DNA from: Phoronis australis
Lineage: Eukaryota > Animalia > Phoronida
Assembly (NCBI GenBank): GCA_002633005.1
Contig: NMRA01000007.1
Coordinates: forward strand, 1,846,569-1,910,568
Direction: 5' to 3'
Length of the DNA stretch: 64,000 bases
A program made the translations under genes and the position numbers. The number at the start of each line of letters is the position of its first letter. The first letter of the stretch is position 1. The notes beneath the pieces are model-generated. The model saw only the letters and a program-made list of their open reading frames with translations. It searched no databases and had not been told where the DNA came from. Below, piece by piece: positions 2,746 through 54,060 of this stretch.

Positions 2746-15839
<13,094 letters not shown>

Positions 15840-17439: not shown

Positions 17440-20400
17440 TTAATGAAGAAACCTAATACTCATCTTCTGCTCTACATCCACTCTCTGCATGGCCTGCAAG
17501 ATAAGCAGACTATGAAAATATTACCACCATACTGCAACTAACCTTAAACAGAAAACGTTCTTCCCAGAAGCTGCCAACTGCAGGAGACACCACTAACAAA
17601 TTCATAGACAAGGTTTAGTACCCTCAGCCAGAAAGTAATTAATATCAAGCTAGGTATCCTAGCTAGCTTTGGCAGTCAAAGCCAAAATTTGAAGATGGCA
17701 CTTTCGCTAAATCTAAAGTCCTGTGTTTTAGTTCATGCAAAATAAAACACTCATCAAACTTGAATCAAAACTGACCAACTTCTAAGAACAATGAATATCA
17801 CTAGCAGTGCAATAAAACTTTTAGAATATTATCGTGTTTGCTTTGAAAAACTTAAATTTCAACTGTTTACCCAGTGTAATTGAACAAGCAGCAACATAAC
17901 GACCGAGATATAAGTTAAATATAAACACAAAGTGGGTCATTCAGATTCACAAACAATTGAAAATGAAGAATGCCTTACCTTACAGAATTCTTCAAAGGAG
18001 ATGGCCAGGTCCCCATCTGTGTCGGCTTCAGCAATTGTTCTGTCGGCTATACTCCCCAGCTGGTAAAAGAGAATGGCAATTATGCAGTGAGTCTTCACAC
18101 ATATAAACTCAAAAATTTGAAGTATGTTTTACATACAGAGCAGTTAAATAGTTCTTGAAAATGTCAAATACACGTACGTACTGTGCAAAGGAAGCACAGC
18201 ACAGGCACGTTCAATTAATATTTTGCACTTCATCAAAAAATTCAATCATTATTTAATGGATTACTGCATGACTTAAAGTTATGTAGGACTTTATTGACAG
18301 ATCTCTACATCAAGCCAAATATCTACAAAACCATAAAATTTAACTCAGCAAAAGTACACATCTTCTGAAAGAAGAAATTCTGTAAAATTTCATTTTTGAC
18401 AATCTGCCACTAATGAAGTCACTTGACATTGCTTTTGTACGAAAATTTAGCAAAAAAGAAAAGTACATTCATAGCAAAACAACAGGAACACTGATATGAT
18501 CAAATTTCGGCCATGCGCACATGTTAACGTGTAAACGCACCGACTAATGGCCCACTTAAACCTGAACACCACTGTTAAGTGTACAAATGAAGAGTCTGAC
18601 TCGATTTGCTGATACCAAAGGTGCACATTGCAAACTCACATACTGGCCAATGGTACAATTGGGGTTTGCATGAAAAGAAGCATAGCAGATTCTTTCCCAC
18701 TTCGCTTGATATCATGACAATAACCTGTTGCCACACACCAGGAATTCGCCCGAGGTTTGTAAGACCAAATGCTGGATTTCCACGGGCAGTGCTCTATAAT
18801 TAATGTGAGGTTACACAGCAAGATGGTGATTCTGTCCCACTTTTCTGCTAAGTTTGGAAATCCACAAGTGGCTTTTTGATAGAGTACAGCAATGTCAGGG
18901 CAGCAACAGGTGACTGCAGACACTGTACCTGCTCCTCCGAGATGTTGGCACCAACCATCATGTGCAAGACTGCCAGCAGCTCTTCTCGTGAGATCTTGTC
19001 GTCATTATCCAAGTCATACATTTTAAATGCAACTAGAATAAAATAGAAGATATCTAATGGCAACTGTTAAGAGTTCATCACTTACGAGACAAGCTGGAAT
19101 TTCAAATTAACACAGGGCAAACAGGATGAAAGTTCGAGCCATTGGCTTTTCACTCAGAATTTTGATACCAGGAAACAGCAACCGGTTGAGGACTACCACA
19201 GGACTGCCCTTTTCATACTCATCTGATTTAAGGGAGATAAACAGTTACATAATATGAAAAAGCTAGTCTCGAGGGCTTTGATAACGTAACAAATATCATG
19301 CTTGAAACAAAAAGTTAAATTTCCAGAGTTTAAACATAAAACGCTTAATGTCCAAAAGCAGGTAATGAAAATTTTGCAGAAGGCTCAATGCCTGAACGTC
19401 AGCTCCAGAAGACGGGGATGATCCACTCAGCTGGGCTGCTCACTAATGTCTTGGCCTCGCATCGTTTCAACCCATTTGACAAAATATTCGTAACCTGTAC
19501 TATATCTTATATACAGCTCAAAATCTCCAAAACACAAAGACTGTGCATGGCATTAAGAGATCGTCCATGGTAAAATATCACCAATTTCAAGCAAAAACAA
19601 CCGCCAAAATTCCACTTTAATAAATTTCTAAGGACTTCTAACATTGTTGAGAACATCAACAATTTTTCAAAATATTTTCAGTAGATTAAAAAAAATATGT
19701 TGAAAAATTGTTGAGATTTTACTGTAATTAAAATGGACTAATCGACATGATTTTGCAATGAAAATTGAACATTGGTAGCTTACACATCAACTTTTCACTC
19801 CTGGTATTCAGGGCATTTTCAACGTCCATCTTTTTCTTTGTGGGCCGGAAGCAAGCTAGAGTCTTCATGAACTGTTTGAAGTTCACCCGGTCTGTGTGAC
19901 TCTTTCTGAAAAGCAAAATTACAAAAGAATTTAAAAAGAACCCCAAACTGGTATTGACACAGTTTAAAGCTAGACTTGAAATGTAACAAATTTTCCAAAA
20001 TATGCATACTTACGAAGTTACTAGTTAATGATCATTACAAGGATAGTAAAAACCAAATGCTAAATAAACAGAGTTAGAACGAGATGATGATATTTGTGCT
20101 TTCTGACACAACAATCAACTTTTCCTTTATCACCAAGAAATTGGTCTCACGATGTTCATACTAGTCACATCATGGGCAATTTTTTTAGCTGGGAGAGAAC
20201 TTAGATTGTCATTGCTCGAGGTAAGGCTCTAATGGTTGGCTTGTCACAGAGGATCATTTTATGAGCAGTGCATGGTCTTGAGCAATAATAAAATCTCAGT
20301 TTTTCTACGAACCATTTCTCATCTGAGTAAGGAACAAACCGATACCAGTTTTACAGCTGCAGCAGTAAGCGGTATAAAAGAAGTTAGTTTACTCAATAGA

Positions 20401-23400
20401 ACAAGGGTTTACAGCATTATCTCACCAACTTAAGGAAAAATAACGGCCAAAATTGTGAGTGACCAGAAGTTTTCAGAATTGTGTGTAGCGGTAGGTATCA
20501 AACGAAACTTGAAAAAAAAAACAATGCAGACGGTCCAAAAGATAGACCAGACCCATTGCACAAAACACCGGATTTAAAACTCATGAAGACTCTTATGTAA
20601 ATATAGTCATTAGGATCTTGAACAAGGTGAAGTACTAAGTGTTATGTATCTTACATGAAAATATTGAAATATAAAATATCAGCTGTCAGCCATAGCTTAC
20701 TTTAAGTAACAAACAACATAATTATGACTTACCCTTCTTGAAAAAATGCATGCACAATTCTGTCTCCCAGTGGGTTGATTGCCAACTCTGGTATTCTGAT
20801 GAAATCTTCCCTCCTGGAGATAGAAATGGTACAAGTACACAAATGTCTGTTCACAGTTTGACGTGTTAAGCTTTCAACCATGAGTTTCATTACATATATG
20901 GTTATTCACACAAAGGATTGCCACTCAGGCCTTCATGCAGCGTACGTCCTGGGCGTCCAAATGGACGCCCCAGCACTAATATGGACGCCCTGGCAAGGAC
21001 GCCCAATGTATCATTTGGACGCCCACTGTCAATAGGAACCTTTCAAGTTTGGACACACACATTGTAATGATTACTAGGAAGCCTCTGAAGGCTCACAGTG
21101 GGGGCTCTTTTTCAAAGCAGGAAGAAATATACATTGTATATACTTTGTATATACAATGTTGCTATGCTCACACTTGGTTGATAGCATTGTAAAAGTCTTG
21201 GTCTACACCAATTTTTTATTAAAAATGCTCACTACAGAAGGCTGTTTTGTAAACTTAGATGAAAAACCTTGGTCTATGGATTTTTTTGTAAAAAAAATCT
21301 GTGTGTTTGGGGGGATTGCTGGGGATGGGGAGTTACGCGTCGGAATTATGGACGCCCTGGAATATTGGGAACCTCATTTTGGACACCCTATTTTCGAAAT
21401 CCTGGATGAAGGCCTGTTGCCACTCCAAATAGTATTCGTCAAAAGTGTTTTAAACGAAACTGACCAAACAAATACTCCTGTATGTAATACATGTTACACG
21501 AAGTAATATGTATATTACATGATGTAATAAATGTATTACACGATGTAATGTGTATAGTACATATATTACATGACGCAATGTTTACAAGTAAACTTATCAG
21601 AACCTTCATACATCATTCTTCTCTTAAGTGACCACATTCATCAATCCAAGTTTTACGTCACTGTGTAACAACAAAAAACAATCAACATAATTACAAATGT
21701 ACATGAAGACATCCACTCACTCTTAACATTTCTGGTAGCAGACAAAACACAATGTCGTTTCCCTTTAAACTAGGCTCTTATAGCAAGGTTTTGGCTTTTT
21801 AAAGCCAACTTACACTCACGTTTTGAGATATATACTTGCTCGACATCAAATGTACATTCAAATTTACAGCAGCATTGATAGTTTCTCTGTCATTTATAGT
21901 GGTACTTACCCTAGTGTTCCATTGTTTCCTTTGTCAAGACTAGTGAAGCGACTGTACAGACGAACAATCTGATTTCTAGAGACTGAAAAACAATACATGG
22001 AATTTAAATCTAACGTCACGCGACTGAATTACCCATGGAGATTAAAAAATACATTAGTAAAAAATCTCTCGAGTTGAGGACAAAAATGTGGTGGAAAAGT
22101 GAAATTCTATTTTCTCACATTTCTGACAAAAGTCTTTTCATTAGATTATGGTCAGAACATTATACACATACATAGTTGGTTAAGAAGCAGGACATCAGTC
22201 TTGATGTTCACATGTTGCTGTCTACCATATTTATGGCTTCGTCTTCAATGAAGGCACCAGTGCCAGTTTGGATGAAACAGTCCCAAATAGGGAGCAAACT
22301 AAGTTCCCTAAAATATCTGCATATTTGTGGACTTGTGAAAACACTGAGTCACCTTTCTTATGCTGTTTGAGTATCATTACTAAGCCAATTTTTGGATTTA
22401 ATACAAATCGAGAGTGAACTCTACGTAAAGTTCTCCATTATTGAAAATAAGTAGGGATCCTTTCATGCGACGCCCCTAGTTTAAGGACAAAGTCCCTAAT
22501 TATTTTTATTGAATTATGGGCTCAGGTTTTAGTTATATTATTAGACAATGTCATCAGACAAACAGCAGCTCATAATGAAGATAAAATGAAAGAAAAAATT
22601 TTACATTTGTGAGTAAATAATGAAACAAATACGCAGATTTAGGTCACTTAATAGAGTCCCTATTAGTGACTGTTTCGTGTAACCGGCTACTGAGCGCCAT
22701 GAGGAAATTTGACACTAATGTGACTAATGTTAATTTGCACAGAACTTTATAAAAAATTGTTAATGTCTTTAAAAGTAAGCATTTGGCTAACTGAAGTGTA
22801 TGTATTCACTCATTGTTTCCGCCACAATACTTGAATATCCGTTAATTATTCCAGTCAATCAACTTAGCAGGAGACTCGGAGGTCACAGTCAGTGAAAGGT
22901 TTCAGCTCAGTCATGCTAAATAGTACAATGCATTTCCTTGTTAACTATTGTCTGTACTCGGTTATATAAGAAATTAGTCATTGAAGCTAGCAGCATGACA
23001 TATGTCAGATGAATACACATAAACTGTACATAACACATCCTGCTTTGATGTTACTCACCACTGAAAACCGTAATATCCTTTCTGTTTCATGATTTAATGT
23101 TATGTGACAGGTAATGGTATAAAGTGAGTTTAACAAACACTGAGCAGGTGATAAAAAATGTGAACCTTTATTGACAGACCTACCAGGTAACAATCAAAAA
23201 CAGTGTCCAGATTTAAGACTGATACACAACTCAAACTACCATCTTCACATCTCACTTTCCAAATGGAATTATAGTAACTGCATGATTGTCAGCAAATAAC
23301 GCTCTTCTCTAGTTACTGTCAGTTTTGACTATTAGACTATTCCCATCTCAGAAAACCATATCTCTGTCTCACGTGACGTACAGTTGCTTAGCATTCCACG

Positions 23401-26400
23401 AGGATATGGTCAATACCTCCTCAGGTTTCTCATGTCGGACAGCACCCACAATTTCAGCCACGTCACCAACGTAAAATGGCCGGTTGATCGATTCGCTCAC
23501 ATGCGTCGAACAATATGGCGCGTTCGACTCCAGGAGCAGACGATTCCGCGGAATAGCTCTAACCGCACGCAATTGTTCTTCCTTAAAGGACTTCACAGTT
23601 GATGTCAGACCGAAGAAGCAGTTCGGCAGTTGCTCTATCCAGTGTTCCAAAACACTTTCATTGCCGTCAAATGAGACAAGGTGAATGTTCTTACCACGGA
23701 CACAGTGTTTTCTGATTAATCTTACGCAGGTGCTGTGAGCAGTGAAAGCATTACTCGCTGTGGACCGAACACGCACCATCAACACCTGACTGTAATTGCA
23801 GAGTACATCTTTGATCCATGTCTCTAAAATACGCTCAAACGCACTGGTCTGCGATTCCCACTGATCTGAAGGTAGGGTAAAGTCCAAGCCGATTTCACCA
23901 AGACAATGGACTCGCCCGTTGTCCATCAACTTGGCAAACTTTGGCCAAAATGAATCGGCAAGCAAATCGTAATGATCAGACTTCACCCCAAGAGCAACCC
24001 TCCACTTTGGATCAGCTGGGTATTCGATGTCATCGTAGAATTCGGGATCACAGAACACGGCAACTGCGCCAATTAAGTTAATGGGAAACGAAGCTGGCAC
24101 CACACTGCTTTCATCCAGGACATCGTAAACTGTTTTGTGAGTTGGATTATGCCATAACGCTCGCTTCAGTCGACTGAGATAGAAAAGGCAGTCAAAACCA
24201 TCTGTAGAGAGTGGAAGATCTGGCAAGTCCTCGAGGGTGTTAACAACAACTACTGGACTTTCTGGAGATGATGGTGGAGGGTCAACAATGTGTTGCTGCA
24301 GGTCTCGTTGAATGTGCTCAAGAACATTCAAGTAGTCTTTATGACACTTTCCAAGAAAGGCCAAGTAATCATCATAGTTTTTGGATTTGAGTTTATACAT
24401 GACAAACAAGAATACTCGCCAATGTAGCAAACAAGCTGGATGATTCAACCTTGGTCTCATTGTAAATTTAACATTCTCTATTAAACGCCATTTGATGGAC
24501 TTAAGCATTTCGCGCATAGCTTTTTCTCTCTCTCCAGAGATGGCAATCCTCCCATCAGGTAGCATGTTTTTTCTCATAGAAGGGTCATTGACATAAGCAT
24601 TCAGTCTGTACAATGATTTGGAACCGGTCAATTTCTCGGAAAGAAACTGCAAATTTCTAAACCGTAGCACATGCAGCTGCTTTACGTTAAACAATTCCGT
24701 TGTTTCATTTCCTTGAAACAACCTAGGAAAATGTTTCTTGTACACATGGCTCTTGATATGACGAGATGAGTAAGTACACCCTGGGGCAGGACATCGACTT
24801 CGCTTCCGCTCCTTCACAGGAGGAACCCAAATGTCCGCGCTCACTGACAGGTCTCCTCCCACACCAACTGACTCGACCAACTCTTTCCAGGGCATAACTT
24901 CCTTATCAAGCCAATCATTATCAAAAATTGCTCTTGCCTCTTTCCGAAATTCAACAATCCAGTCTTCTTCCTGGCTGTCATAAGCCCATCTAACTTGTGC
25001 TAAAGCCAGTCTTTGTTTAAGATGGTAGTTAATATCTGCTGACTTAAGCTTGGATATCAGTTCATCAACTGGATACAATGTCTTATCAAGAACAGCAGTC
25101 TTCACTTCGTCACAACACCAATCGCTGTTGGGAGTGCCTACAAGATAACCAAGAAGCACACGCTCAGAAATCCAACAAAGAGTCCCAACGAGAACTCAGT
25201 AATCCTGAACNTTTCTCTCTCTCCAGAGATGGCAATCCTCCCATCAGGTAGCATATTTTTTCTCATAGAAGGGTCATTGACATACGCATTCAGTCTGTAC
25301 AATGATTTGGAACCGGTCAATTTCTCGGAAAGAAACTGCAAGTTTCTAAACCGTAGCACATGCAGCTGCTTTACGTTAAACAATTCCGTTGTTTCATTTC
25401 CTTGAAACAACCTAGGAAAATGCTTCTTGTACACATGGCTCTTGATATGACGAGATGAGTAAGTACACCCCGGGGCAGGACATCGACTTCGCTTCCGCTC
25501 CTTCACAGGAGGAACCCAAATGTCCGCGCTCACTGACAGGTCTCCTCCCACACCAACTGACTCGACCAACTCTTTCCAGGACATAACTTCCTTGTCAAGC
25601 CAATCATTATCAAAAATTGCTCTTGCCTCTTTCCGAAATTCAACAATCCAGTCTTCTTCCTGGCTGTCATAAGCCCATCTAACTTGTGCTAAAGCCAGTC
25701 TTTGTTTAAGATGGTAGTTAATATCTGCTGACTTAAGCTTGGATATCAGTTCATCAACTGGATACAATGTCTTATCAAGAACAGCAGTCTTCACTTCGTC
25801 ACAACACCAATCGCTGTTGGGAGTGCCTACAAGATAACCAAGAAGCACACGCTCAGAAATCCAACAAAGAGTCCCAACGAGAACTCAGTAATCCTGAACA
25901 CATGCAGAGAATTCAGACCAATACAGATCCTTTGATGGAATCATCCTCAGCAAAGTCTTCTATTCTTGGCTCTTTTGCATCCATGGTTTTCTTGTCCTAT
26001 CTTGTCCAATTGGAGTTCAAATCATTCATTTCATATTAGAGTCTGACTACAGAAAAACACAAAAACTGCTAATGGGTTGAATCAATTAATGAGAAAACAC
26101 AACCTTATTACTGACAATATTAATTCAAATTGCAGACAAAAGTCAGAGCAATATTTGTTCCGAAACGGTGCATCATTTTCATCTACAACGTAGCAGTACC
26201 AACAGATTACAAAATCAGAAAGATAGTTGCCATGGAAGTAGATAAGTACCATATATACCAGAATTCTGTGCAACATTATGTACAAAACTGATTTTGAGTT
26301 TAATCAATCACTGAATAAAAGTAATGCATGTTATTAAGTGGAGGAAACTGGTTTTCAAAATCACAGACAAAAATATGTGACTCAAATATTACCTAAGCTC

Positions 26401-26852
26401 CAAAAAGATAGGAGCTGTATGCATTTAAATTTTGTCATTGCTTCTAGATTTTAAGGAACTTGAGATCTATGGAAATATAAGTTTGGAATAGGTATATCTT
26501 AGATTAGAATGCATCTACACATATGTTATGACTGGTAACAATCATGAGACTGTGACAAGCCTGGGACTGGAAGACACTTTTGTCAAGATGTTAACAATTG
26601 TAATGCTGTTTGCATCTGAAGATATTGCATCTGGTTACATGTGAGGATAATCTGAGTGGATCTCACTAACATAATGCGACAGTGTTGGCTCAAGTTATGA
26701 CATTTGAGGAAGTCGGACTCTTAGACTTGTTAGTCTGTCTGTTAGTCCAGAGGAGCGGAAACCCGTCTTTGCAACAAAAACTTACAGCCCGTTTCTCGCT
26801 GAATTTCATCTATTTCTTCGTCTTGAAGTTGTATTGAAGCTTTAGAACCCAT
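17440..26852 (-). CDS. CHP1: Calcineurin B homologous protein (EF-hand, N-myristoylated), 7 coding exons
   Basis: Exons (-): 26852-26786, 21982-21910, 20813-20733, 19905-19784, 19032-18929, 18059-17979, 17493-17440 (TAA). Peptide: MGSKASIQLQDEEIDEIQRETGFSRNQIVRLYSRFTSLDKGNNGTLGREDFIRIPELAINPLGDRIVHAFF...[28 protein letters not shown]...SIADRTIAEADTDGDLAISFEEF...VEQKMSIRFLH. This is typical of CHP1. Confidence 0.96.
20926..21416. mobile_element. hAT-type non-autonomous element (MITE), copy 1, in CHP1 intron 2
   Basis: TIR CAGGCCTTCAT(G/C)CAG and a perfect 8-bp TSD TTGCCACT (20918-20925 and 21417-21424). Internal GGACGCCC subterminal repeats are present. Confidence 0.9.
23369..25137 (-). CDS. 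Nested intronless ORF: C2H2 zinc finger + conserved-looking 'HWR' module + degenerate TatD-like (amidohydrolase TIM-barrel) domain; probable alternative terminal exon of CHP1
   Basis: ~590 open codons. Motifs: CPAPGCTYSSRHIKSHVYKKH (24731-24793), NHPACLLHWRV, and TatD-like CLGEIGLDF, IHLVSFDG, AIPRNRLLLESNAPY and SSWNAKQLY. Acceptor TTCTTGGTTATCTTGTAG|GC starts the exon at 25137 (25826 in the duplicated copy). AATAAA lies at 23172-23167. Confidence 0.85.
24523..25899. repeat. 688-bp direct duplication either side of a single N (24523-25210 and 25212-25899); probable uncollapsed haplotypes (assembly artefact)
   Basis: The two copies are offset by 689 nt, meet exactly at the N at 25211, and differ by 7 substitutions with no indels. 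Confidence 0.85.
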
Positions 26853-27172
26853 GACATAAACTGTACGAAACAGCTATCAAAAGTTAAGAGCAAAAGTATC
26901 AAACCCAAAAAACACTGATCATTTCAGGATTTGACTTCGGAAATAGTTTCTCTTCATCTCGTAATTAATACACAGCCGAACTACAAAAAAATAATAAAAT
27001 AACCACAAAAATATTTTATGACAATAACATGCATTATAATATTTTTAAGAAACTGTTAATACATTGTATTTCAATAGTATTGCTTTATTAAACCAGATAT
27101 TTCAGTGGTTTTTTCGAAAAGGTGGTAAATGTCAGACAGTTAGTTCCGGTTCCGCAAATTGCAAGGGTAGGT
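26853..27172. promoter_or_regulatory. Probable bidirectional promoter shared by CHP1 (-) and NDUFAF1 (+)
   Basis: Head-to-head arrangement with ETS-like ACTTCGGAA (~26934) and TTCCGG (~27144) flanking an AT-rich core. A candidate non-coding NDUFAF1 exon-1 donor AGG|GTAGGT is at 27167. The NDUFAF1 ATG exon has an acceptor at 29312-29313. Confidence 0.55.
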
Positions 27173-27371
27173 TTTCAGGTTCTTGTGACAGTGTTGTGAA
27201 GTTTTTGCTTTGCCGCTCTAATTTTTTACTGTCAAGTTGAATTTACGGTGCTCATGAATTTTTCTAGTTCCGGGACCACGTTAGACAGCCAGCTAACTCA
27301 GTAGCTGTTTGAAGACTATCGTCAAAATACAGCTAGGTTCTGTCACCACTGCACTTGCACTGTCGTAGTCA

Positions 27372-28163
27372 TACCGTCAGAGGCCCTAAAGTCGTGAGTG
27401 CCCTTAAGTCGTGAACGATCTTATTTCCTCTTCTGCGCGGTACTGCGACATCTGGCGTTGAAGTTTCCAGCGTTCGTCTGCTTACGAACGTCAAACGAAT
27501 ACCGGGACGTGTTCGTATTCACAATATGATAACAAACAGTGAGTGAGCGGCTTCTTTTTTCAAATGTATATTTCACTAATTCACTTTTTTGGGCATTTTT
27601 GGGATATATTTTCGAAAATATTTATCGTTCAGATTTACTCAAACACGCGCTCCAGGGGTAGGTTGAACAATGTATCAAACTGTCCCAGGGTTGATCAAGT
27701 TTTGTAAGGCCAAAACAATAAAATACAAAGCGATAATTGATGCTGGGTTCTTAGCGTTTTACGTGAACAACCTCATTGAAAACGTCTGTGAAAATAAAAG
27801 TTGGGTGCAAAACTTATAACAATTTATTTCAATTGAAACTGAATTGATAAACAATGCAATGCATTTTTATGTCATCTAGAGTAACTGTACGCACTGTAGT
27901 TGACTTGTGAGGTCTTACTTCGTGTATTTCCGTCTAATTGAAACGGTCACGACTTTAGGGCCTCATTCAAAACGGCCGCCAATATCAGCGACCGTTTCAA
28001 AACTCTGCTTACGGAGACAAACAAGGATTAAGATTGTCAAAACACGTATATTTGTGAAGGCTGATATATGTCCATGACATCACATGAGCAGTTGCTAACG
28101 GACATTGGGTAGTATGACAATCGGCACTTATGCTTATATTCACGACTTTAGGTCACCGGTGTA
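27372..28163. mobile_element. Non-autonomous DNA transposon-like element with repeated CCTAAAGTCGTGA subterminal motifs
   Basis: Perfect 18-bp inverted repeat at 27380-27397 / 27947-27964, with further motif copies at ~27402 and ~28140. Both ends are TA-flanked. Confidence 0.6.
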
Positions 28164-29337
28164 TACTATAGGGAGGACAACGTTTTTTTAATTTTTTTTA
28201 CAATACCCATGTGTCATACATTTTTGAAAAGCCCTTGGTGTGAGAAATGAAATGGTGCAAAAATCAGAAAAATTGGATGAGCGGTTGACAAGAAAATGGC
28301 CGATGAAACGCGATGATTATGCGTAAAATATCTGCCTTTTTACATAATTTCGTAAAAAATTAAAGAATATACATGTGCTGCATATAAAAAGATTCGTCTC
28401 ANGCCCTCCCGATAACTTGTAAGCATGTTGAGTGAACATGGGATAATGGAGAATTGATCTTTGACGCGTTTGATTGGCTACCATTTTCGGATACTTTTGC
28501 AAATTTTCAGATTCGCCAAAGAAAGTTTCGGAACACACCATAACACATGATAAAACGTCACAAAACAGCGGTGTTTCTACTAATTCTTAAGCGATCAACT
28601 TACTAAAGTTTGTGGTGGAAAAACATGTTTGTTTTTTGCGTAAGATGTCCTTACTACATGTACCAAATATCCACTACAATATCCCCGATATCGCACCGTG
28701 GCACTGGTCGATCCCTTTGTTAGTGCACAAGCCGTCCGGACAGACAATGGTGACTTAGAAATGTGCGTCACGTTTTTTTTTATCGTATAAGACAGCAAAA
28801 GGGAAAATGACAACCCTATTAATCATCAAATGACGACCACGTCTTTACTTTCAGCAAAGTAGTTTTTGAGTTGCCAAGAAATTCTCAAATCCCTTTACTT
28901 GTTTCTGGGACTATGTGCGCGAAATGTGATTTTTCTTTCACACTTTGTTGCCAACGTAAAGTGGAGGCTTACTCCAGTACTTCAAGTGCGTGAACTCACG
29001 CCTGTGCACCACTCCAAAGCTGCACATCAAAAGAGAACAGCGACAGTCCTAAATGAAAGAGTACACCGGCATTTTTGGCTCTGTTAAGCATCTGGGTGCC
29101 AGTGGCTTGTTTTGAAAACAATTGCTAGCAACGTTTTGAACAGCAGTGTACAAAGTGAGGTATCTGAAAGTTTCGTATGAAACCTAAAAGTCATCTCTGA
29201 GATATGATGTTCCGAAGTTAGCCAAACGTGGACATCCGTAGGCTCCTACAGAACATTAAACTGTAATATTCTGTGTGGCATTACCTGATTGTATGTTATG
29301 GTTTCTTTTTCAGTGTTAGTGCCTTCAAGCTCCAGCT

Positions 29338-32300
29338 ATGTCTGTATTACAGAAACTACTAAAGCCGACACATGTCTGTCGGCTACTGACGCCTCCGTCT
29401 CGTCACAAACTTCCAGTGGCAACTGTAATGGGTGTATTTGAAGAAGACAAAAAATCGGGTTACGGCAAAGATCCACCTGGAATCAAAGAGTATCCGCGTA
29501 TGGTCAAAGAAGGTTTTTCAGAACTTGGAGCTGAACTTAACATGCTTAAGGATGAATGGAAAGAAAAGCTCATGTGTGACGCAATGTGGGCGGACAGAGA
29601 CTATCTCCATGGTGATTATCAGTTGCTATGGCAGATGAATAAAGAGGAGGACTTGGATCAGTGGATTGTCACCACTGATCAAGACCACAATGAGGGATTC
29701 AGTGACGCCACTTTAACACTTGGTAAAAATAACTTTGGGGTGTTCAGTGGCCATTTGTCAAGCAGGATGCCAAAAGATGGCGTTGTGGAGAGAAGCGGCT
29801 ACTGCAACATTAGGTCAAAACCAAAAAAGGTGATTCTCTCTCTGTGTTTCAAGCATTTCTAATTAGGTGCATTCTGGGTCACATATGTTTATTCTATGGT
29901 TACAGTGTTATACAAACCTCTAATCATTTTGTACATCTTAATATTCACACCAGTTATAAATATGAACTTTAATTAAAATGGTATATCTACCAGATCAGGC
30001 CTTTATGCAGCGTGCCTCCTAATATGGACCCCTGGGAAAGACACCCAATGTATTATTTGGAAGCCCACTGTCAATAGGAACCTTTCAAGTTTGGACACAC
30101 ACATTGTAATGATTACTAGGAAGCCTATAAAGACTCACATTGGTGGCTCTTCTTCAAAGCAGGAAGAAATATACAATGTATATACAAAGTATATACAATG
30201 TTGCTATGCTCACACTTGGTTGATAGCATTGTAAAAGTCGATCTACATATTTTTTTAGGAAAAATGCTCACTACAGAAAGATTTTTTGTAAACTTAGATG
30301 TAATACCCTTGGTCTATGCATTTTTTGTAAAAAATCTGTATGTTTGGGGGGATTGCTGGGGGTGGGGGGGTTATGCGTCGGAATCATGGATGCCCTGGAA
30401 TATTGGGAACCCCATTTTGGACACCCTATTTCCGAAATCCTGGATAAAGGCCTGTACCAGATGCTATCACTTAGCCTTCTGTGACTGCCCAAATAAAACA
30501 ACTTGATTCTATAGCTGCATAATGTAATATTTTTATCACTAGATGGTGACCCAATACTTGGACAATAGTAAACTACATCTGGAGTTCTCTCATACAGTGT
30601 GGAGTGAGCTTTAATGTAGTTGAATTTTCCAAAATTTATGCAATAAGATTACTAATTATTGGTGTGGATGATAAAATGTTCATTACAAAATGTGCGTGTA
30701 TGGAAGATTGTCAACTATTCTCATCTTGATCTCCTGACATTGAAATTGGGTCCAACGGTAGTCTGTTTCGTGTATTCACAACGCTAAAGGGTTTTCTGGT
30801 ATTTGCTATTGATCAATCTGTTTCTGGTCTCAATATAAAAACAAATGGTAAGCCCTTGGACATTCATTGCTATCATATTTTCAATGCTTACTGGTCAGAA
30901 GGTTTCATTTTACTTTTTGACGTCATCACTAGAAAATGACAGACTACCAAGGCAAATAGAACAATCAGTCACTTGAAGCATCAGAGCGTAATAAACGGTA
31001 ATAAGAGAAATTTGGTCCCAAATTGTTCCTTGCTTAGATTTAATGTGATATCCAGCCTTGGAAATAACAGTTTTGTTAGTGCTTGACCTAGCAGGACATT
31101 TTATCTTGGAAGTAGATCTATCTGCGATTCAATCTTTAACCAGACATGCATGCATACACAAGCTAGGACGTGTTCTTTGTTTGAAATGGTGTATGCCACA
31201 AAATAAAAAAGGGGGTGGAAACAATTGTGTGGGTCATGCCTCTGAATTCTAGGTACAATCCCCAAAATCCCAGTCCTGGACCAGAAACACCATAATCATA
31301 TCTCTAAATTCTACATGTGCATGGAAAAAAATTATGTACGTGGAGATCAAACTCCAATGTGGCAACCATGGTCCAGTTCTGGAGTTTGGACACCAGGAAT
31401 TGATTTTTAGGGTGCTGGTATGGAATTTGATCATAGTTTTGTTTGCTAGTGCAGGAAGTCCTTGGGTTTTGGGGTCAAAACTGTAATTTAGAAGCGTGGC
31501 TACAGAATTGATTTCAGCCCTTGTATATACGTTGAATTTCATCATTAGAGGTAGTATCGCTGAGACATTTCTTTAGACTCCTCGAATTTTAATTTTGTAA
31601 ATGTTTTCAGACTACCGTATGCGATTAGATATTAAAATTAAATGTGCAACTTTGTTGATTAGATCATTTCATTTCCTGCAAAGACATTTCTATTTGTACA
31701 ACAGTAGATCTTTTTCCCTTTCAGAAGTCTTTCAAGCGCCCCATACCTCATAACCTGTCCTGTTTTACTCACCTTCTCATCCGTTGCCGTGGTGATGGGC
31801 GGCAATACACCATAAGTCTGGGTCAGGATTCATACTTTGACCTCACATGGCACGACCAATTCAACTACGTTCTCTACACTAGAGGCGGCCCCTACTGGCA
31901 GCTAACAAAGGTGACCAACAGTGCTGAAAAGTGATGTTATTACGTATGGTGTTGATTTAGGTCAAGGATTGGAAAGGAATACTTCTTGTCACTGAAATGC
32001 CTTTATTAACATGGCTACTGAAGTAATGGCCACTCAAATTATTATCCTTTTTGCCTACAAATGGATGACTGAAAACATTTGTGATCTTGTTAAAGTTTCT
32101 CAGTGACTTACTTTGCTCAGACCAGAAAATTGGGGAAAACGTGTCCACTACTAGCCAAAAATAGAAAGACCAGTCTACCGGTACTGTTTATTTAAACACA
32201 AGCACAAAATATCTACTTTTACGTGAGTGTGCATTTTTCAAGTCAGGTTGCTGATTTGCTTGCAACTCACAACGCATGGCCAGATTTGACAAGTCATTTT

Positions 32301-33241
32301 AATGGAGCAGTAAGTTTGTGGCTTCTGCCAAAAATTTACGTTTGATTTAGGCCACTTGCCATCATGAAATCAGTCTCATAAAGTTCCTTACTGAGGTTAC
32401 AAATGTTTTCGGGGCTTGAGAAGAATTATTTGCTCATTACTGCTTCAGACAAAGGCCATGAAAGTGGTAATGGTAGGATATAACGTGCCCAAATTTTGAG
32501 AACAAGTTTTCTCCACTGGATAACGGGCATCAAATTGGTTCTCAAAATACGGGCACGTTGTATCCAACTATTACCCATGAAAGTACTACTAGCTTGTCAT
32601 GGCAGGTTAATGTCAGTTGCCATGACAGTATGGCCGTCGGGGATTTTAGGCAATATGTTATAACCATTTTCTATTCAAACGATGGGTAAGAATGAGACAG
32701 TGTTGCTTTGAAAGAATGGTTACACTTGGGAAGAAAGTTGTTTTTGACATTAAAACCGGATTTATTGTGGCTTTAAGCCAGTGTATCCAAAAATTCAGTT
32801 CAAAAACACAGATTTTGTGAAAATTGGTTGCCTGAGTGTTGACGTGTTATTTCTGGGTTTGGAAACTACTGATAAATCATGGTGTTGATCGGATGGTGTT
32901 ATATGCGCCAAAAGTAATATGATTCACATCTCAATAGAAATAGGCTAGTTCCATGCCCAAACACTAGGTGGTGTTACTGGTTGCTTAGAAGCTGTAATGG
33001 TGTCTTGCTTTTCCAGATACCATTCTCCAAGTTTTTCCTCTCAGCCAAGGGTCGGATACAGGATAAACAGGAAAGTGTGCTGTTAGATAGGGTAACAACT
33101 CTTGGATTGACATGTGCCGATCAAATCGATGGACCTTTTGAGCTGGAGATTGACTTCATTGGTGTTCAAGTGGACAAGAATTATCGAGAAGAATTTGCAT
33201 ACGAGATGTATGAAGTACCCAGACATCTTATTGGAACATAA
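29338..33241 (+). CDS. NDUFAF1: Complex I intermediate-associated protein 30 (CIA30), 3 coding exons
   Basis: Exons 29338-29829, 31725-31910 and 33017-33241 (TAA). Motifs: [49 protein letters not shown]...[27 protein letters not shown]. Confidence 0.96.
29996..30454. mobile_element. hAT-type MITE, copy 2, in an NDUFAF1 intron
   Basis: Same family as 20926-21416. TIR CAGGCCTTTAT(G/C)CAG and a perfect 8-bp TSD TACCAGAT (29988-29995 and 30455-30462). Confidence 0.9.
32466..32575. mobile_element. 110-bp palindromic MITE, copy 2
   Basis: Reverse-complement match to 10303-10412, with termini GGTAATGGTAGGATA / TATCCAACTATTACC. Confidence 0.75.
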
Positions 33242-38377: not shown

Positions 38378-41300
38378 TCATTCTTTGAACCTCTGTACCA
38401 TGTAGTGATTATCTTCGTCCTTCTTAAAACCAAAGAGTTCGTAAAATGCTATCATCTTTTGGAAGCACTCTAATGATATCTTGTAACACCCAAGATTTAT
38501 GGCCAGGTCAGTCAGTGTTGCCAATAACCTGAAACAAATGAATTTTCAATCAGAAAAGGCAAAATCCAAGGTGAATTAACAGAGAATAGTTCCTATCCCT
38601 GCATATAATGGTCTAACTGTAAACAGTACAACCAGAGATCAAACCCTACAGTCGAACTCGAAACCTTAGATGCCTCAGCTGGGCATCAGAAATTGCAAAC
38701 TGATTACAGCTTTAAGTGTTGCAACTGATTTTAGCTACACTAAAATTTGCACAAGTTGGATTCAACCAGACCATGAGAATTTAATATCAGATTAAGGCGA
38801 AATGCGATTTATCTGAAGGCCCATTTGTACATACTTTGTACAAGTTAAGTGAAAATCTGACATGCATGCCCAATTTATGTGGGTTTTACTGTATTTATGA
38901 GGAGTGCCATTGAATTACTACAGCTTCGGTATCCAAGCTTAAACTGCTGATTAGAATGTCTTAACACTTCAGCTTGCGCATGGCTAAGGAACGGACAGCA
39001 AAACAAGTCATTTGCTTAAAAAATGCAGACAAACAACATAATTATGCTGTTCTACTGGCCCAGGCCATAATATGGGTATGCTGTTCTACTGGCCCAGGCC
39101 ATAATATGGGTATGCTGTTCTACTGGCCCAGGCCATAATATGGGTATGCTGTTCTACTGGCCCAGGCCATAATATGGGTATGCTGTTCTACTGGCCCAGG
39201 TCATAATATGGGTATGCTGTCCTGGACCTGTTAGAACATCATAAAGACAACAGTAGTTTTTGCACAATTTCAAATTTACTTACTAAAATTATAGCTGTGA
39301 ACTACAACAATTGAAATCATTACAATAAAATAAAATTATTTCAAATATCAAAGTTTTATTTAAAGAACTCAGTTAATGTTTTAACTCACAATTTCCCCAG
39401 TTGTTTCCCTCTGTGTTTTGAGCTAACGGCAACATCTTCAATCCTTCCACGCTTAAAGAATGAATGCACAAATATATCACAGTTCTCAAAGTCAAAAGCA
39501 GATTTTGATTTCATCCTGAATCTTTAAGCTACTACAACAACATACAGGTTAATAGCTAGTACTTAAAATGTCGCTAAAATGAGACACTCCATAACTTGGA
39601 GATGAGCTTATAATTATTCCTACACAGTAATGATTCCCACAGTACAACACAGAAAGTGCAATCTTTATCACAATATACAGTCCAATCAGCTATCCAGTCA
39701 GAAGATTACAAAAAGCAATTGACCTTTTTACCGATAATGAGAGATATCGCATATACAAAGGATTGTGGGATAGCGATGAGCACAAGTAGCACCATCAGAA
39801 GACTTAGATGTGTTACCTGAAGGCATCACTAAATAGCAGTACATGAAGCAGTCACAAGTTGAGTTTATCACAGATAACAGTATTAAAATCAACTTCCATC
39901 TTACTATGCAGGTGAATGCCCGCATGACACTTCCTGAATCCTGAATTAGAGGACTCAAACCTACAGACCTGTGTACCACCAAACTCCATTGGAGTACTCT
40001 GAACACCAGATTTGCAGATTTTTCAGTAATTTGCAGATTTTCACGTACAGACCAAATTTACTTTAAAATATGGGGGTGTTGAATTTTTCGCAGTGGACCT
40101 TTCACTAATTAAAAAATAAAACGGGTTTGTTCAGCATTCATAGCTTTCACCGAATTCTTGCCTCTTTAGTGGACTTTTGTCTTGCTTTCTCAGACTTATG
40201 ATCTCCAACTTTCAGAATAATTTAAGTTGTCTAGTTGAGGGACAATGCGCTTAGTGAAAAGATTCTGTTAATCAAATGTCCTTACTGAACTTAGTGGTGT
40301 TAATACATGCCTAATCATTAGGCTAATGATTAACCTATTGATTAATCACGTATATACACCTCATTTCTTAACACAAAAACATATCTGCAAAAATGTGTTG
40401 GACAAGGGTTTGCATCAGACGATATTTTATTAACCATTCACAAAAGTTTTGAATAATTATTCATTGCAAGTGTCTGTGAACACGTACCACCGTATTGCAT
40501 GCGAAAAGATCTCGAGGCTCGACTGTGGCTCGAGTATTATCGTCAGCTCGACATGCTACTAAGTCAGTGCAGTCACCATGTCCGCAAAAAAACAACACGC
40601 TATACAACTTGCAGTATAAATTCCACGGTCCCTTAAATAAGACATTGTCATTCTTTGGAATAACGCGGCAAAAAAACAGATATTCCCTTCTTTCAGAAGC
40701 TACTTTCTTTACAACACGGAATATGCAACCACATGCTTTGCAATTTTGTTAACAATACATATTTAGCCGTAAATAGCCGAAATTAAACGAAGTAAGTAAT
40801 CCACAAATCACAGAAGTCATTGCTTATAGGTTAGGCCTGTGACACACATACCGATAGAAGAGGCCTCGCAATTCGCTGATTATCAGGCTATTTCGAGAAT
40901 GAAACGAAGCAAGTTTTCCAAGTTTGTAGCCCAACTTTTTGGCTAAAATAATGATTTTACAATATTTTTTTTAATTTCTGACTTAAAAATCTTCTTCCTC
41001 ATCCGTTTACACTACAAATTGGCGTATTTATTGAGAAACAAGCGAATTAATAATCTCTTTTGAATTTGCTGAATTTGCGTATTTTGCCTGGCCGTGCGAA
41101 CTTGCATAGTGGAGGCTTGATTTCTGTACGAATTCGCATTTTTTGCGTATTGTACACAGGTCTGAACCTATCCTCTGGGATACCCATGTTTTGATTCATG
41201 CTATATGTAAAACAATGAGGACCAGTGAATACATTTGATGACTCCTGCTGCCTCCTACAGCCAAATACTTGAACTTCCCATTATAAAGCTTTGGTCATGA

Positions 41301-44300
41301 ATTACAATTTGTTCACCCTCTGACAGAAAGCATGTGTGAGCACATGACAAAAAGGGGGGTTCATAAGAATTGCAGAGCATGAGCCTGTGAGGTAGAATTG
41401 GATTTGTGGAGAAAGAACGTAATTAGTAAAAATGCTCATGGTATGCGTGAATGTGGACTGCTACCCAGACATTGGAACCTTACTCTCCAAACTGCCTTGT
41501 ATCAAACTCTTGATAATAAGAGCCAGAAAAAGATAAAGTCTAACAAGCACTTGTACTTACTGTGGCACACTTTCTAATAAACTTCTGTTCGATGACTAAC
41601 GTTGCGGTGCCTATTACTTCATTAGATTTGACGTCTTCAACGACAACCACAAGGAATGAGTTGTAGCATGCTTTCATCATTTTGAATCTATCTGTAATAC
41701 AGAGATGCAAGTCTACTTTCATCATTTTGAATCTATCTGTAATACAGAGATGCAAGTCTGCTTTCATCATTTTGAATCTATCTGTAATACAGAGATGGAA
41801 GTTGTTACACAAAACAAACTTAACAATAAAGACTTGGAGCAGGTTACCATAATCAACTGTCAACTTAACAAATCAAAAATGCAATGACCAAGAAAGTTCA
41901 TATAAACATTGAAATGCATCAAAAATGGCTAATGCTTATGAATTGACTATTGGGTGCTGTGTGCTTTCGACAGCCTCGCTTGGCTATTTACCAACCTTAC
42001 CACCACAAAGCATAGAGTCAATGTTGCAACTGTTTTACTTTAAAATAAAATCTACTTAACCATGTCAGGAAATGAATAACCGTGAACAATAGATTGATTA
42101 CAAACATACCAACAAAAGTCCAATTACTTGCCTTTCAGTGTTTTGTGATAAATACTCAAATTATGTATGTTAACTGACCAAAATAAGTCACAACATTGTC
42201 ACAGAAAAACATATTTGGCAACAAACAGCTTTTAGCACAAGGCCGAGTAAATTTTGATGGTAATAGGATTGGATCTAACTTCATCGTGAATGTTAAGTGC
42301 CAAAGGACTTAAAAAAGACCAAAGTCAATAAGCGTTATGGTAAAATCTCACCTATTTAACTTAGGACAAAAATTATTGCTAAGTCCCCTTATTTCATTGT
42401 TTAAGAGCTTCTAATATTGTAGTGAATGCCCATAACTTCACAAAACATTGTCGGATGGCAGCTATGGTTACAGAACTTGGACATAGAAAGCCACTAATTC
42501 GGTGCAATATAACTTTCATGGAACAAGTGCAAAATTAAAATTTCACTTGCTAGCTACGTTGTGTCCTAAATTGGTGAGATTTTACCGCAACTCTGGTTTT
42601 ATTGGCCTCAAAAGCTGAGTACGGCTCTCGGAGATAAGTTTCGGTTGGGAAGTTGCCATGAGGATTATCGACCTACTCGTTACTGCGCTAGCCAGTAGCG
42701 CAGGTTAGTGGACCAACCACAGTCTGGCATGACCATATTTTCTGAAGTATTACAGAATTTGAGCAATCAATCGTATGGTTGGAGCAGAGAACATCCACGT
42801 AAACACTGCCAACATGTGAGAGGATGTGATAATTGTAATTAAACTCAACTTAAATTGAGAGACTAGAGCATGTGCAAAAGTTGCTGTGTTGGCTTACTAA
42901 GGAATGTCCACCTAAACATTCTAATATTGTTAGTTTTTGTCTTTGTGTATGCAAGTATGTGTAGTGTACAAATAATGTAAAAAAGTATGAACTTTAAGCA
43001 AAAACCTTCAATGAGTGCCTGTATTTGATGCAGTATGCTCGGTACACATCCTTACAAGTTGGTATCGTAAGGCAGCTGTGCATTCTGATATCAGTATTAC
43101 TGGCAATCAATATACATTATTTTTTCTATGAGTTCAGTTTAATAAACCACTGGCATATCCAATAACCATAATATCGTGTTAGTACATATAAACATTTCAC
43201 CTGAAAACTCCTCTTCTGATATATCTCCCACTTTGGTGAGTTCAGTCAGCACATCAAGAAAACCTGTAAACAATAACAGACATATAAAGCTAGGTCATTA
43301 CCTAGGAGATGACAGAATAGTCACTAGTATGTCATTAAACAAAATGAAATTGCAATAAAATACGACAATAAATTCACAAAAACACTTACCAGAATGTGAC
43401 TATGTTTGATACATAATAAAGCATAGTACAGGAAAAAAAACTTGTGTAAAAAGAAAAGCAAAAAAGATGAAAATTCTACTGAAAGTATGGTCTAAAAAAC
43501 ATGACATGTTTTGTAAACAAGCAGCTCATATCTATGATATGCCCTAAATGTTTAGGGTTTTTGTTAAAAAATTTTGAATAAGTACAAAAACAGAGCTTTT
43601 AACAATTGGCAGTGTATTCTAATTTAAAAAAAAAAAAATTAAAATCATTAACATGATTTGCACAGGGGTGTTGCAGTGCTTTTTGTTCAAAACAGTGTAC
43701 AATGACACCTTGCATTTTACCTAACTGCAAAAATATTTAGAACATGAAACTTGAGTTAACCAGAAATATCCATAACAGTGGAGTCCAATCATTTTCTGAT
43801 GTCATATCCAATCAGACAAAGAGATGTTATTTGAGCAAGAACAAATCTAACTTATTTGAAGGGGCAAAAGCAAGATCCATACCACAGAACTTTGTACGAT
43901 GACTTCAGCAAAGATCATAGTTTTTGTATATCTTCAAATGCATGTTTCAAAGCAGTACTAGTACACGCTCTAGCAACAATCAAATGGAATTTTATGGTCT
44001 ATCGGAGGCACTTTAGAAGAAGCAGTCAGAGGTATACATTACCTCTGTGATAGTCATCAATCTCCAAGGGTCTAAGTAGCAATCCTTCACCGGGACAGGA
44101 TGGACTGAGTGAGAGGCCATATCTATCTTTCCAATCACTAGCGTCAACATTAGAGATCAGGTGATCAGAGAAAAGCTTGTTGCTTTCAACGCAATTGTTG
44201 TTCTGTCAAAGGCAAATAAACAGATATTCAAAAAACATGCTATAGCTCAAATGAGTACAATAAAAGAACTTAAATATGGTTTGCATGACAGTAAATGTAA

Positions 44301-52891: not shown

Positions 52892-53893
52892 ACTCTGCTC
52901 ACTTTTAGGGAAGAAAAATAATGCCATTGCTTCTTGGAAAGAAAGACTTAAATGTCATTGGTTCTTTGCAAAATAAGATTTAAATGTTGTCTTGGCAACA
53001 GATTAATGAAGAACAAAATCATGTTAAGAATATTTCAATGTCATTGGATTTTTGAGAGAAAGAACTGAAGGTTTTGGTTGTTTTATAAAAAAGTTAAAAT
53101 TGCAGTTTTATTGAGAAAAACATTTTGTTAAAACATTTGGTTGCAATAGTTTCACTGCTGAAGGATAGTTATGAACAGTTCTTGCCAATGTTATGTACTG
53201 TATGTTGCGGCAGTGGAGAGTATTTTTGACTTATTCAAGACTTGTATGTCGACTCATGATGTCTGATTGTTTGTATCCTGGTGATGTCTAATGATTAGAC
53301 GAAATGTTCCATTAATATGAAGTTTTTAATTTGTGCAGCGATTGTCCATTTTTTGATATTATTCAAGAGGTATGTTTCATGAATGTTATTCAGTATTTGA
53401 TAGGCTTCGTGTGAATATTTTCAGTGGTGCTTTTGGAATGAGACTCGATGTTAACTTAATGTGCGTTATGTTCAGTTATTCCAGAAAAATTTGTGTACTA
53501 TTACATATCAAGTTGCCCTATGAATAGACTTGGTTCTGTTATGCAGTTATTGCACTCCTTCCCCATTTTACTGGTCATTGTGAGTCTTCCGACTTGACAA
53601 TAAGAGCAAGATATCTGTTTAGTTATGTGATTCATTCCTTGAATATCTATGGATGGCTTGTTCTTGACCATAATAAATCGGTGTCTTCACTGTCACCTGA
53701 AATGGAATAATGGTGAGCTGGTTAATTTTATTGACATTTCTTTTGTGTCGCTCAGGAAGTCACAAATCCAGGTTTTCTTATATAAATTTGTGTCACTGCG
53801 GTAGTATCTCACCAATATGGGACAAAAGCAATTGCCAAAATTGGTCTTTTTTCGTTTTTCAAAGGTTTTTAACATTACTTTGAATGCCTACAA

Positions 53894-54060
53894 TTGACCT
53901 ATCGCAAGCTCTGCCCCCTTGCGAAATGTCGACAAACAAACAATTTTACCCCGCAACGGGTTGTTTTTGGGGTAAAATGGCGGCTTGGAAACGAAGGTGT
54001 GTCAAGAATGCTACATTCTGATTGGTCAGTTCAGCCGTCAAGCCGTCTCCCAAAATCAAT
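53894..54060. mobile_element. Second, partly degraded copy of the MITE at 4781-4963
   Basis: TTGACCTATCGCAAGCTC.GCCCCCTTGCGAAATGTCGACAAACAAACAAT... matches the reverse complement of 4781-4963. Confidence 0.75.

Follow-up and report, generated by a model that had tools for sequence, protein, structure and literature searches.

Exon-trapping domestication is known for transposases, as in CSB-PGBD3 and SETMAR; in CSB-PGBD3 an intronic transposase serves as an alternative 3' terminal exon, and its catalytic Asp became Asn on domestication (PMC2268245). Among long terminal repeat (LTR) retrotransposons, the third open reading frames (ORF3s) of the bdelloid elements Juno and Vesta are described as typically produced from spliced messages (PMC5408684). 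The activity of human TATDN2, a conserved protein (PMC12709183), was reported to be abolished by loss of either E593 or E705, which correspond to E91 and E201 of E. coli, and its Asp mutant to retain low activity (PMC10711561); single His-to-Ala mutants of TATDN1 had a mild effect (PMC10085689). Here we analyze a TatD-like reading frame in a stretch of 64,000 nucleotides from Phoronis australis (assembly GCA_002633005.1, contig NMRA01000007.1, positions 1,846,569 to 1,910,568), referred to below as the window, whose numbering is used throughout. The reading that we favor, and to which we give about an even chance, is that this frame is a lone ORF3 of a Ty3/Gypsy retrotransposon lying in intron 1 of the gene for calcineurin B homologous protein 1 (CHP1, p22), likely fused to CHP1 exon 1, and that its product would act by binding, to nucleic acid or to retrotransposon particles, and not by cutting.

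A TatD family behind pol of Ty3/Gypsy retrotransposons

The representative protein library contained 1101 relatives at E <= 0.001, and the analysis set consisted of the 150 matches listed and two more (152). Among the matches listed, the best full-length relative is 34% identical to the window protein, and the TatD domain alone reaches 33%. Bivalves, abalone, a brachiopod, sea urchins and a hemichordate are the sources of the named members or of their cluster mates. Scanning metagenomes with the zinc-finger/helical module of the protein gave 26 loci (L011-L036). In 14 of them pol was found directly upstream on the same strand; every one of the 12 loci with upstream sequence longer than 1.6 kb is among these. 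The remaining 12 of the 26 hold at most 1.2 kb upstream, and gag lies downstream in one of them. By Pfam, the gag of these elements comprises HHH (HhH), Retrotrans_gag and zf-CCHC, and their pol comprises protease, reverse transcriptase, RNase H, integrase and PHD. Two loci, L017 (1-8929) and L022 (1-9035), are circular whole elements, with labels for the purine tract, the TG start and a site like a primer-binding site read from the sequence. The protein family corresponds to the third reading frame that follows pol in a Ty3/Gypsy LTR retrotransposon lineage, and most of its members keep the full TatD site.

A tree of 140 rows (FastTree) places the window protein within the ORF3 clade (130 rows, support 99), and the sister group consists of two proteins, P0003 and P0004, which we take from their motifs to be TATDN2-like. 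Because its relatives sit behind pol and it is nested in the ORF3 clade, the window protein is regarded as a Ty3/Gypsy ORF3; the N-domain, the zinc-finger/helical module and the TatD domain, in addition to the nesting, were all found as expected for ORF3 descent. A viral origin was considered and rejected, as the scans of viral contigs gave ten ordinary TatD loci and one weak match with unrelated neighbors.

The Gypsy lineage combines a gag bearing HhH, an integrase tipped with PHD and a TatD ORF3, and in L025 pol and ORF3 share one open frame. Many invertebrate genes annotated as 'YcfH-like', 'TATDN2' or 'TatD family hydrolase' cluster with members of the retrotransposon family, two of them under the name of a bacterial metagenome-assembled genome (MAG). 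The P0079 cluster contains family members under the name of a bacterial symbiont MAG, on contigs of 1.8-2.5 kb, and they are probably host contamination. In a squid Hox cluster, a 'TATDN2' is annotated beside transposon-derived genes (PMC6962438).

Active-site residues and scaffold of the window protein

The TatD domain (23372-24205, minus strand) is a stop-free translation of 278 residues and makes up the C-terminal half of a stop-to-stop frame of 608 codons (23369-25195, minus strand). It matches Pfam TatD_DNase (PF01026) with E 1.8e-21 (77.2 bits, cut-off 27). The AlphaFold2 model built from an alignment of 143 sequences has a mean predicted local distance difference test (pLDDT) score of 85.5, and its residues 304-588 were used for structure comparison. 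It superposes on YcfH (1yix) with a VIA Z of 28.4 and a root-mean-square deviation of 2.7 A over 250 residues; the best nine chains, from YcfH, TatD and TATDN1/3, have Z of 25-28, the next match has 18, and Foldseek also matches TatD/YcfH/TATDN. The TatD assignment of the earlier note, which had proposed the Pfam alignment and the model comparison as checks, was upheld by both. A single-sequence fold of the protein had a pLDDT of 47 and was dropped.

Active-site columns were read from the alignment with the 152 homologs. The replacements described in the earlier note at DxHxH, vHxR, HcF and ETDxP are all seen there, with the GE motif retained and the frame open. Its count of four His and one Asp replaced is right as far as it goes and one short, since the His of GxHP has become Lys as well; six of the seven positions (five His, one Asp) are replaced. 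All seven residues are present in 103 of the 125 homologs that are complete at those sites. To call the loss of metal ligands systematic, as that note did, fits these six positions and overstates the case in that both glutamates essential in TATDN2 are kept. Of the features of class II TatD proteins, the TIM-barrel fold, the Pfam score and both glutamates are present in the window protein, and the HxH motif (or the class I G/AxN motif), the two second-metal His, the phosphate-binding His and the terminal Asp are absent.

One of the seven ligand columns is kept versus 55 of the 66 other columns that are conserved in at least 80% of the family (Fisher p 4e-4). Outside the barrel, the N-domain matches a profile made from 15 family N-termini with E 1.4e-10 (no better than E 0.14 in 200 shuffles), its residues 11-70 have block pLDDT of 83-93, and the C/H columns of the zinc finger are 96-99% conserved across the family. 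ESM Atlas matches for the fold of the N-domain and the zinc-finger module were all below 0.9. Judged from the alignment, the loss is selective for ligands, with the scaffold and the zinc finger retained. Catalytic inactivity of the domain is likely on this pattern, and it is put no higher because the domain retains the two essential glutamates and TATDN1 is only mildly affected by single His mutations. It seems quite probable that, with five His and the Asp gone, a two-metal site would not be held, and that the Lys and Arg at two former ligand positions would suit phosphate binding.

Ligand loss recurs in the family, as three or more site residues are lost in 10 of 125 homologs. In the FastTree phylogeny the window protein is joined with two long ligand-poor branches (support 83) and the ligand-poor label needs four changes. 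With the ligand columns removed (44 of the 140 rows) the label needs eight changes, at least three of them forced, and 32 of 500 shuffles were as low; a single origin for all ligand-poor members was rejected on this count, and at least three separate changes are needed in both trees. One ligand-poor clade belongs to oysters and includes Ostrea edulis LOC130052597, Saccostrea echinata LOC133176619 and three unnamed clusters. The clusters are 59-69% identical to one another and have the same replacements in all five aligned rows. This clade is probably a second domestication. It belongs to the family of the window protein and has likewise had most site positions replaced (five of seven), and it is unlike that protein in the replacements themselves, in its two zinc-finger modules, in its own Met, in giving no match to the N-domain and in not grouping with the window protein. 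The zinc-finger/helical module is doubled in the oyster proteins P0027, P0047, P0160 and P0164-P0166, whose TatD is conserved and ligand-poor, and clusters of the clade hold 32 and 89 members in assemblies of sequencing runs.

Genomic setting, variation and expression

RNA reads join 26786 to 21982 in runs X5, X6 and X7 (27, 24 and 87 reads counted from the 21982 side; 71 in X7 from the exon 1 side). The upstream exon gives a 22-residue match to p22 residues 1-22 (E 0.0017), and a further exon at 18929-19030, with exons 1 and 2, matches CHP1/p22. Because of these joins and matches the ORF3-derived frame is placed in intron 1 of CHP1, on the same strand, and it sits there in sense orientation.

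The copy is solo. Searches of the 64,000-nt window for pol and gag gave no match below E 0.46, a search of CHP1 intron 1 with profiles for the end of pol and for PHD gave no match, and no LTR trace was found as a direct repeat in that intron. An apparent PHD-like remnant upstream of the acceptor was discarded, being unsupported by the profile search when compared with window controls. Of an intact Ty3/Gypsy element, neither gag/pol, LTRs, purine tract and primer site nor near-identical copies were found at the window. At 90% identity or more the frame is single-copy, with no gag, pol or LTR nearby, and its variation is mostly synonymous. Nine variants are listed in the frame: seven distinguish the two alleles, and a DNA contig adds two. 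Eight of them are synonymous, where a share of 0.22-0.31 would be expected (p 4e-5 to 5e-4). On this excess the frame is judged to be under purifying selection, which supports retention of the protein for something other than its ancestral catalysis. The joint chance of neutral decay to six ligand changes with no stop is at most 3e-7, so that the proposal of a retained non-catalytic role, made in the earlier note, is strengthened by the variants and by this bound.

The conserved N-domain lies upstream of the first in-frame Met (residue 81), and the start must therefore come from another exon. The candidate acceptor is the most pyrimidine-rich of ten YAG sites listed in the 5' region of the frame, and by hand count it lies 65 bases before a proline, compared with 67-107 bases in five elements. 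Under a strict rule, an acceptor occurs within 45 bases before the ORF3 ATG in five of ten elements versus 434 of 3000 random places (14%). Two of the elements compared, L018 and L020, are near copies of each other, and in L018 and L025 the site is a CAG at 0-1 base with fewer pyrimidines. The donor of CHP1 exon 1 and the acceptor match in phase, and their join gives one open frame of 611 residues. In X7, depth is non-zero in 15 of the 16 frame bins and zero in all seven repeat-free intron bins upstream; five bin depths can be accounted for by two reads that cover about 25049-25137, and the two-read model allows only a mean end at 25137. About two reads ending at the acceptor are deduced in X7 versus 87 ordinary joins. 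Sense orientation in a host intron, an in-frame acceptor, a downstream poly(A) motif and a pattern of purifying selection, as expected for exon trapping, were all found. The poly(A) candidate is weak, as the DNA is AT-rich and no reads mark a 3' end. Human CHP1 is myristoylated on Gly2 (PMC12415208), and by analogy the product of CHP1 exon 1 and the frame would probably be an N-myristoylated protein of 611 residues.

An apparent tandem duplication of 24523-25898 (D2, repeat of 687-689 bases) was rejected. A single DNA contig of 1196 bases comprises 218 upstream, 687 repeat and 291 downstream bases and fits both copies, so that it spans flank, one copy and flank, and the two copies are alleles. 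DNA depth over the frame is about 7, equal to that of unique flanks. Other single Ns in the window, for example near 28403, may mark similar false joins.

Table 1. Positions of the ORF3-derived frame, its active-site residues and the CHP1 exons in the window.
Feature	Position	Strand	Basis
Intronless ORF3-derived exon, 588 full codons and stop; first Met is residue 81	23369..25137	-	
N-terminal helical domain common to Gypsy ORF3 proteins, upstream of first in-frame Met	24902..25114	-	
Zinc-finger-like motif C-x4-C-x9-H-x4-H, all four ligands kept	24731..24793	-	
Helical module ending in family motif N-x-P-A-x-L-x-H-W-R	24416..24730	-	
TatD barrel, 6/7 active-site positions replaced, two glutamates kept	23372..24205	-	
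HxH place reads L-F-Y	L 24185-24187, Y 24179-24181	-	alignment
GxHP His to K	23981-23983	-	alignment
GE Glu kept (bridging Glu)	23894-23896	-	alignment
HxR His to R	23771-23773	-	alignment
HcF His to V	23675-23677	-	alignment
ETD Glu kept (E201-equivalent)	23528-23530	-	alignment
ETD Asp to N	23522-23524	-	alignment
AATAAA about 200 bases past the stop, candidate polyadenylation signal	23167..23172	-	motif scan
Candidate 3' splice site, pyrimidine tract and TAG, phase 1, placed as in intact ORF3s; allelic copy 689 bases higher	25138..25157	-	
Second allele of 24523-25209 joined across a single N (at 25210); assembly artefact, not a real duplication	25212..25898	.	
CHP1 exon 1 coding part, Met-Gly start, 22 codons and one base, phase-1 donor	26786..26852	-	
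CHP1 exon 2, main partner of exon 1	21909..21982	-	RNA reads

The window is animal DNA and also has other spliced genes, with Sec23 and CIA30 pieces recognized by Pfam. A very high-copy repeat (27244-28400; summed DNA depth 2000-6400 versus about 7-15) lies between the start of CHP1 and the opposite-strand CIA30 (NDUFAF1-like) gene and has RNA on both strands. Another high-copy repeat occupies 22205-22688, on the downstream side of the frame within CHP1 intron 1, and has a summed DNA depth of up to 5000. Dispersed copies of a repeat containing a short palindrome (20988-21417 and 30030-30455, 86-93% alike) occupy introns of CHP1 and the CIA30 gene. In the 5' untranslated region of CHP1, most RNA reads and the DNA contig have a 5-base insertion relative to the assembly at 26892-26893. 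Elsewhere there are short tandem arrays at 39009-39257, 41671-41805 and 11480-11623 (units of 34, 45 and 36 bases) and dispersed inverted-repeat elements resembling miniature inverted-repeat transposable elements (4805-4965 with 53892-54040; 10290-10412 with 32465-32588).

Weighing of the readings and comparison with known systems

In the preferred reading, a Gypsy element would have landed in sense orientation in CHP1 intron 1, the phase-matched donor of CHP1 exon 1 would have captured the splice acceptor of the element's own ORF3, whose ATG was lost, and ORF3 would have become a minor alternative last exon of CHP1 (about 2% of exon-1 joins in one run). Taken together as one step, we hold these events to be fairly probable. 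The rest of the element would have decayed and the catalytic site would have been shed, with the zinc finger, N-domain and barrel retained, and the Met-Gly given by exon 1 would make the product a lipid-anchored binder. Its most natural partners would be those of the ancestral ORF3, namely retrotransposon RNA, cDNA and particle proteins, and for this reason interference with the parent family is preferred as its function. The weakest step, which we put forward tentatively, is that the product acts as a membrane-tethered decoy interfering with the Gypsy family of origin. The earlier note had suggested a decoy of active relatives, and this can now be made specific, since the relatives are retrotransposon proteins. 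A wider proposal, that marine invertebrates repeatedly captured Gypsy TatD ORF3s and stripped their sites to make host decoys against retrotransposons, with nothing but the start and the myristoylation signal of CHP1 used in the present case to anchor the decoy on membranes, is in our view doubtful.

Several observations weigh against the preferred reading, and some of them lend themselves to other explanations. The window protein retains both of the glutamates that TATDN2 strictly needs. TATDN2 requires its N-terminal region for R-loop binding, which is weak in the E593A mutant (PMC10711561), and binding by a crippled barrel is thus not assured. The protein could be domesticated and yet be an attenuated Mg2+ nuclease, in which the two glutamates and the Asn hold one metal and support a weak 3' exonuclease activity on RNA or DNA. 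The equivalents of E91 and E201 are the only residues that TATDN2 strictly requires, and its authors suggest that one Mg2+ may suffice (PMC10711561). TATDN1 is active without HxH and tolerates H149A, H174A or D222A singly (PMC10085689), and the window protein still has the His that the family conserves two residues ahead of the lost strand His. Against this reading stand six simultaneous changes, two to bulky basic and three to hydrophobic or aromatic residues. The family is also of class II (HxH), and in that class TATDN3 drops 30-fold when its Asp is mutated (PMC10085689). The second Glu is 98% conserved even among ligand-poor members and so may be structural. On balance we consider an attenuated nuclease unlikely.

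Other unfavorable points concern splicing. The two X7 reads were deduced from bin depths, may represent one molecule, and have their upstream half unseen. The search for joints, which covered about 18-19 in 100 reads of each RNA run, listed no joint of exon 1 to the frame at its threshold of three reads from two starts. Averaged over the frame, depth is about 0.8, 0.3 and 1.6 in X5, X6 and X7 versus 42, 37 and 116 over exon 1, and this depth (1-2% of exon 1) is no higher than that of two intron-2 bins (0.04-6.9). There is no contrast between frame and intron in X5, and X5 and X6 add no support for splicing; the strict acceptor rule is unmet in half of the ten elements. The lack of a listed joint would also suit a nested gene that is not fused to CHP1, driven by a promoter of its own or using a different upstream exon, starting for example at Met 81 or in an unseen intronic exon, and expressed in an unsampled tissue. 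X5 has low depth at 26174-26601 upstream, and a further acceptor-like tract lies near 26040. A start at Met 81 is at odds with the conservation of the N-domain upstream of it, and the seven repeat-free upstream bins have zero depth in X7, though reads appear to end at the acceptor. A short upstream ATG frame, read by eye, has no phase-1 donor. A nested gene is accordingly judged improbable, about as much so as an attenuated nuclease.

Two further points bear on selection. At least one difference between the contig and the window in the frame is unlisted, and with 8 of 10 or 8 of 11 synonymous the p value is still at most 0.005. In addition, no ortholog was found in the protein-library searches (best full-length identity 34%, domain 33%). 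That the frame is not domesticated, being a neutral remnant of a retrotransposon sub-lineage in which ORF3 had become ligand-poor before mobility was lost, would suit the recurrence of ligand loss in the family and an RNA depth near the intron background, yet it is very unlikely in view of the synonymous variants, of 588 open codons with no trace of pol, PHD or LTR on either side, and of a DNA depth equal to a single copy.

If the preferred reading is true, an unannotated CHP1 isoform is predicted, with nothing but the myristoylated N-terminus in common with CHP1. Selective loss of the site, having occurred repeatedly, also offers natural pseudo-enzymes with which to study what the zinc finger and the barrel bind, and hence what role this cargo has for the retrotransposon. 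Our literature searches found no domesticated non-env ORF3 nuclease, nor did they find TatD described in Gypsy elements or as a pseudo-enzyme, though Repbase, Dfam and supplements may hold such elements; the word TatD is absent from the main text of PMC6238403, PMC8220671, PMC13524379 and PMC5408684. The domesticated form of the Gypsy-TatD ORF3 is new here.

The closest parallel for the arrangement is CSB-PGBD3, in which a mobile-element frame likewise lies in a host intron and joins the host exons in frame, through an acceptor that belongs to the element and with an AATAAA further downstream (PMC2268245). Unlike CSB-PGBD3, the donor of the window frame was an accessory ORF3 of an LTR retrotransposon and not a DNA transposase, six site residues are changed instead of one, CHP1 would give only 22 residues (the start and Gly2), and the fusion is deduced and appears to be rare. 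For the cargo, the parallel is with Juno and Vesta, Gypsy-like elements with a host-type 3'-5' exonuclease in the env slot (PMC5408684). Their ORF3s encode DEDDy or GDSL enzymes whose sites are intact, and they reside within elements (PMC5408684), whereas the cargo in the window is a TatD with two extra domains and has left its element. The window protein resembles TATDN2 and class II TatD proteins in fold, motifs and both key glutamates (PMC10085689, PMC10711561), and TATDN2-like proteins are its sister group in our tree. It differs from TATDN2 in lacking HxH, three more His and the Asp, in being intronless and derived from a retrotransposon, and in having a structured N-domain and a zinc-finger module where the N-terminus of TATDN2 is disordered.

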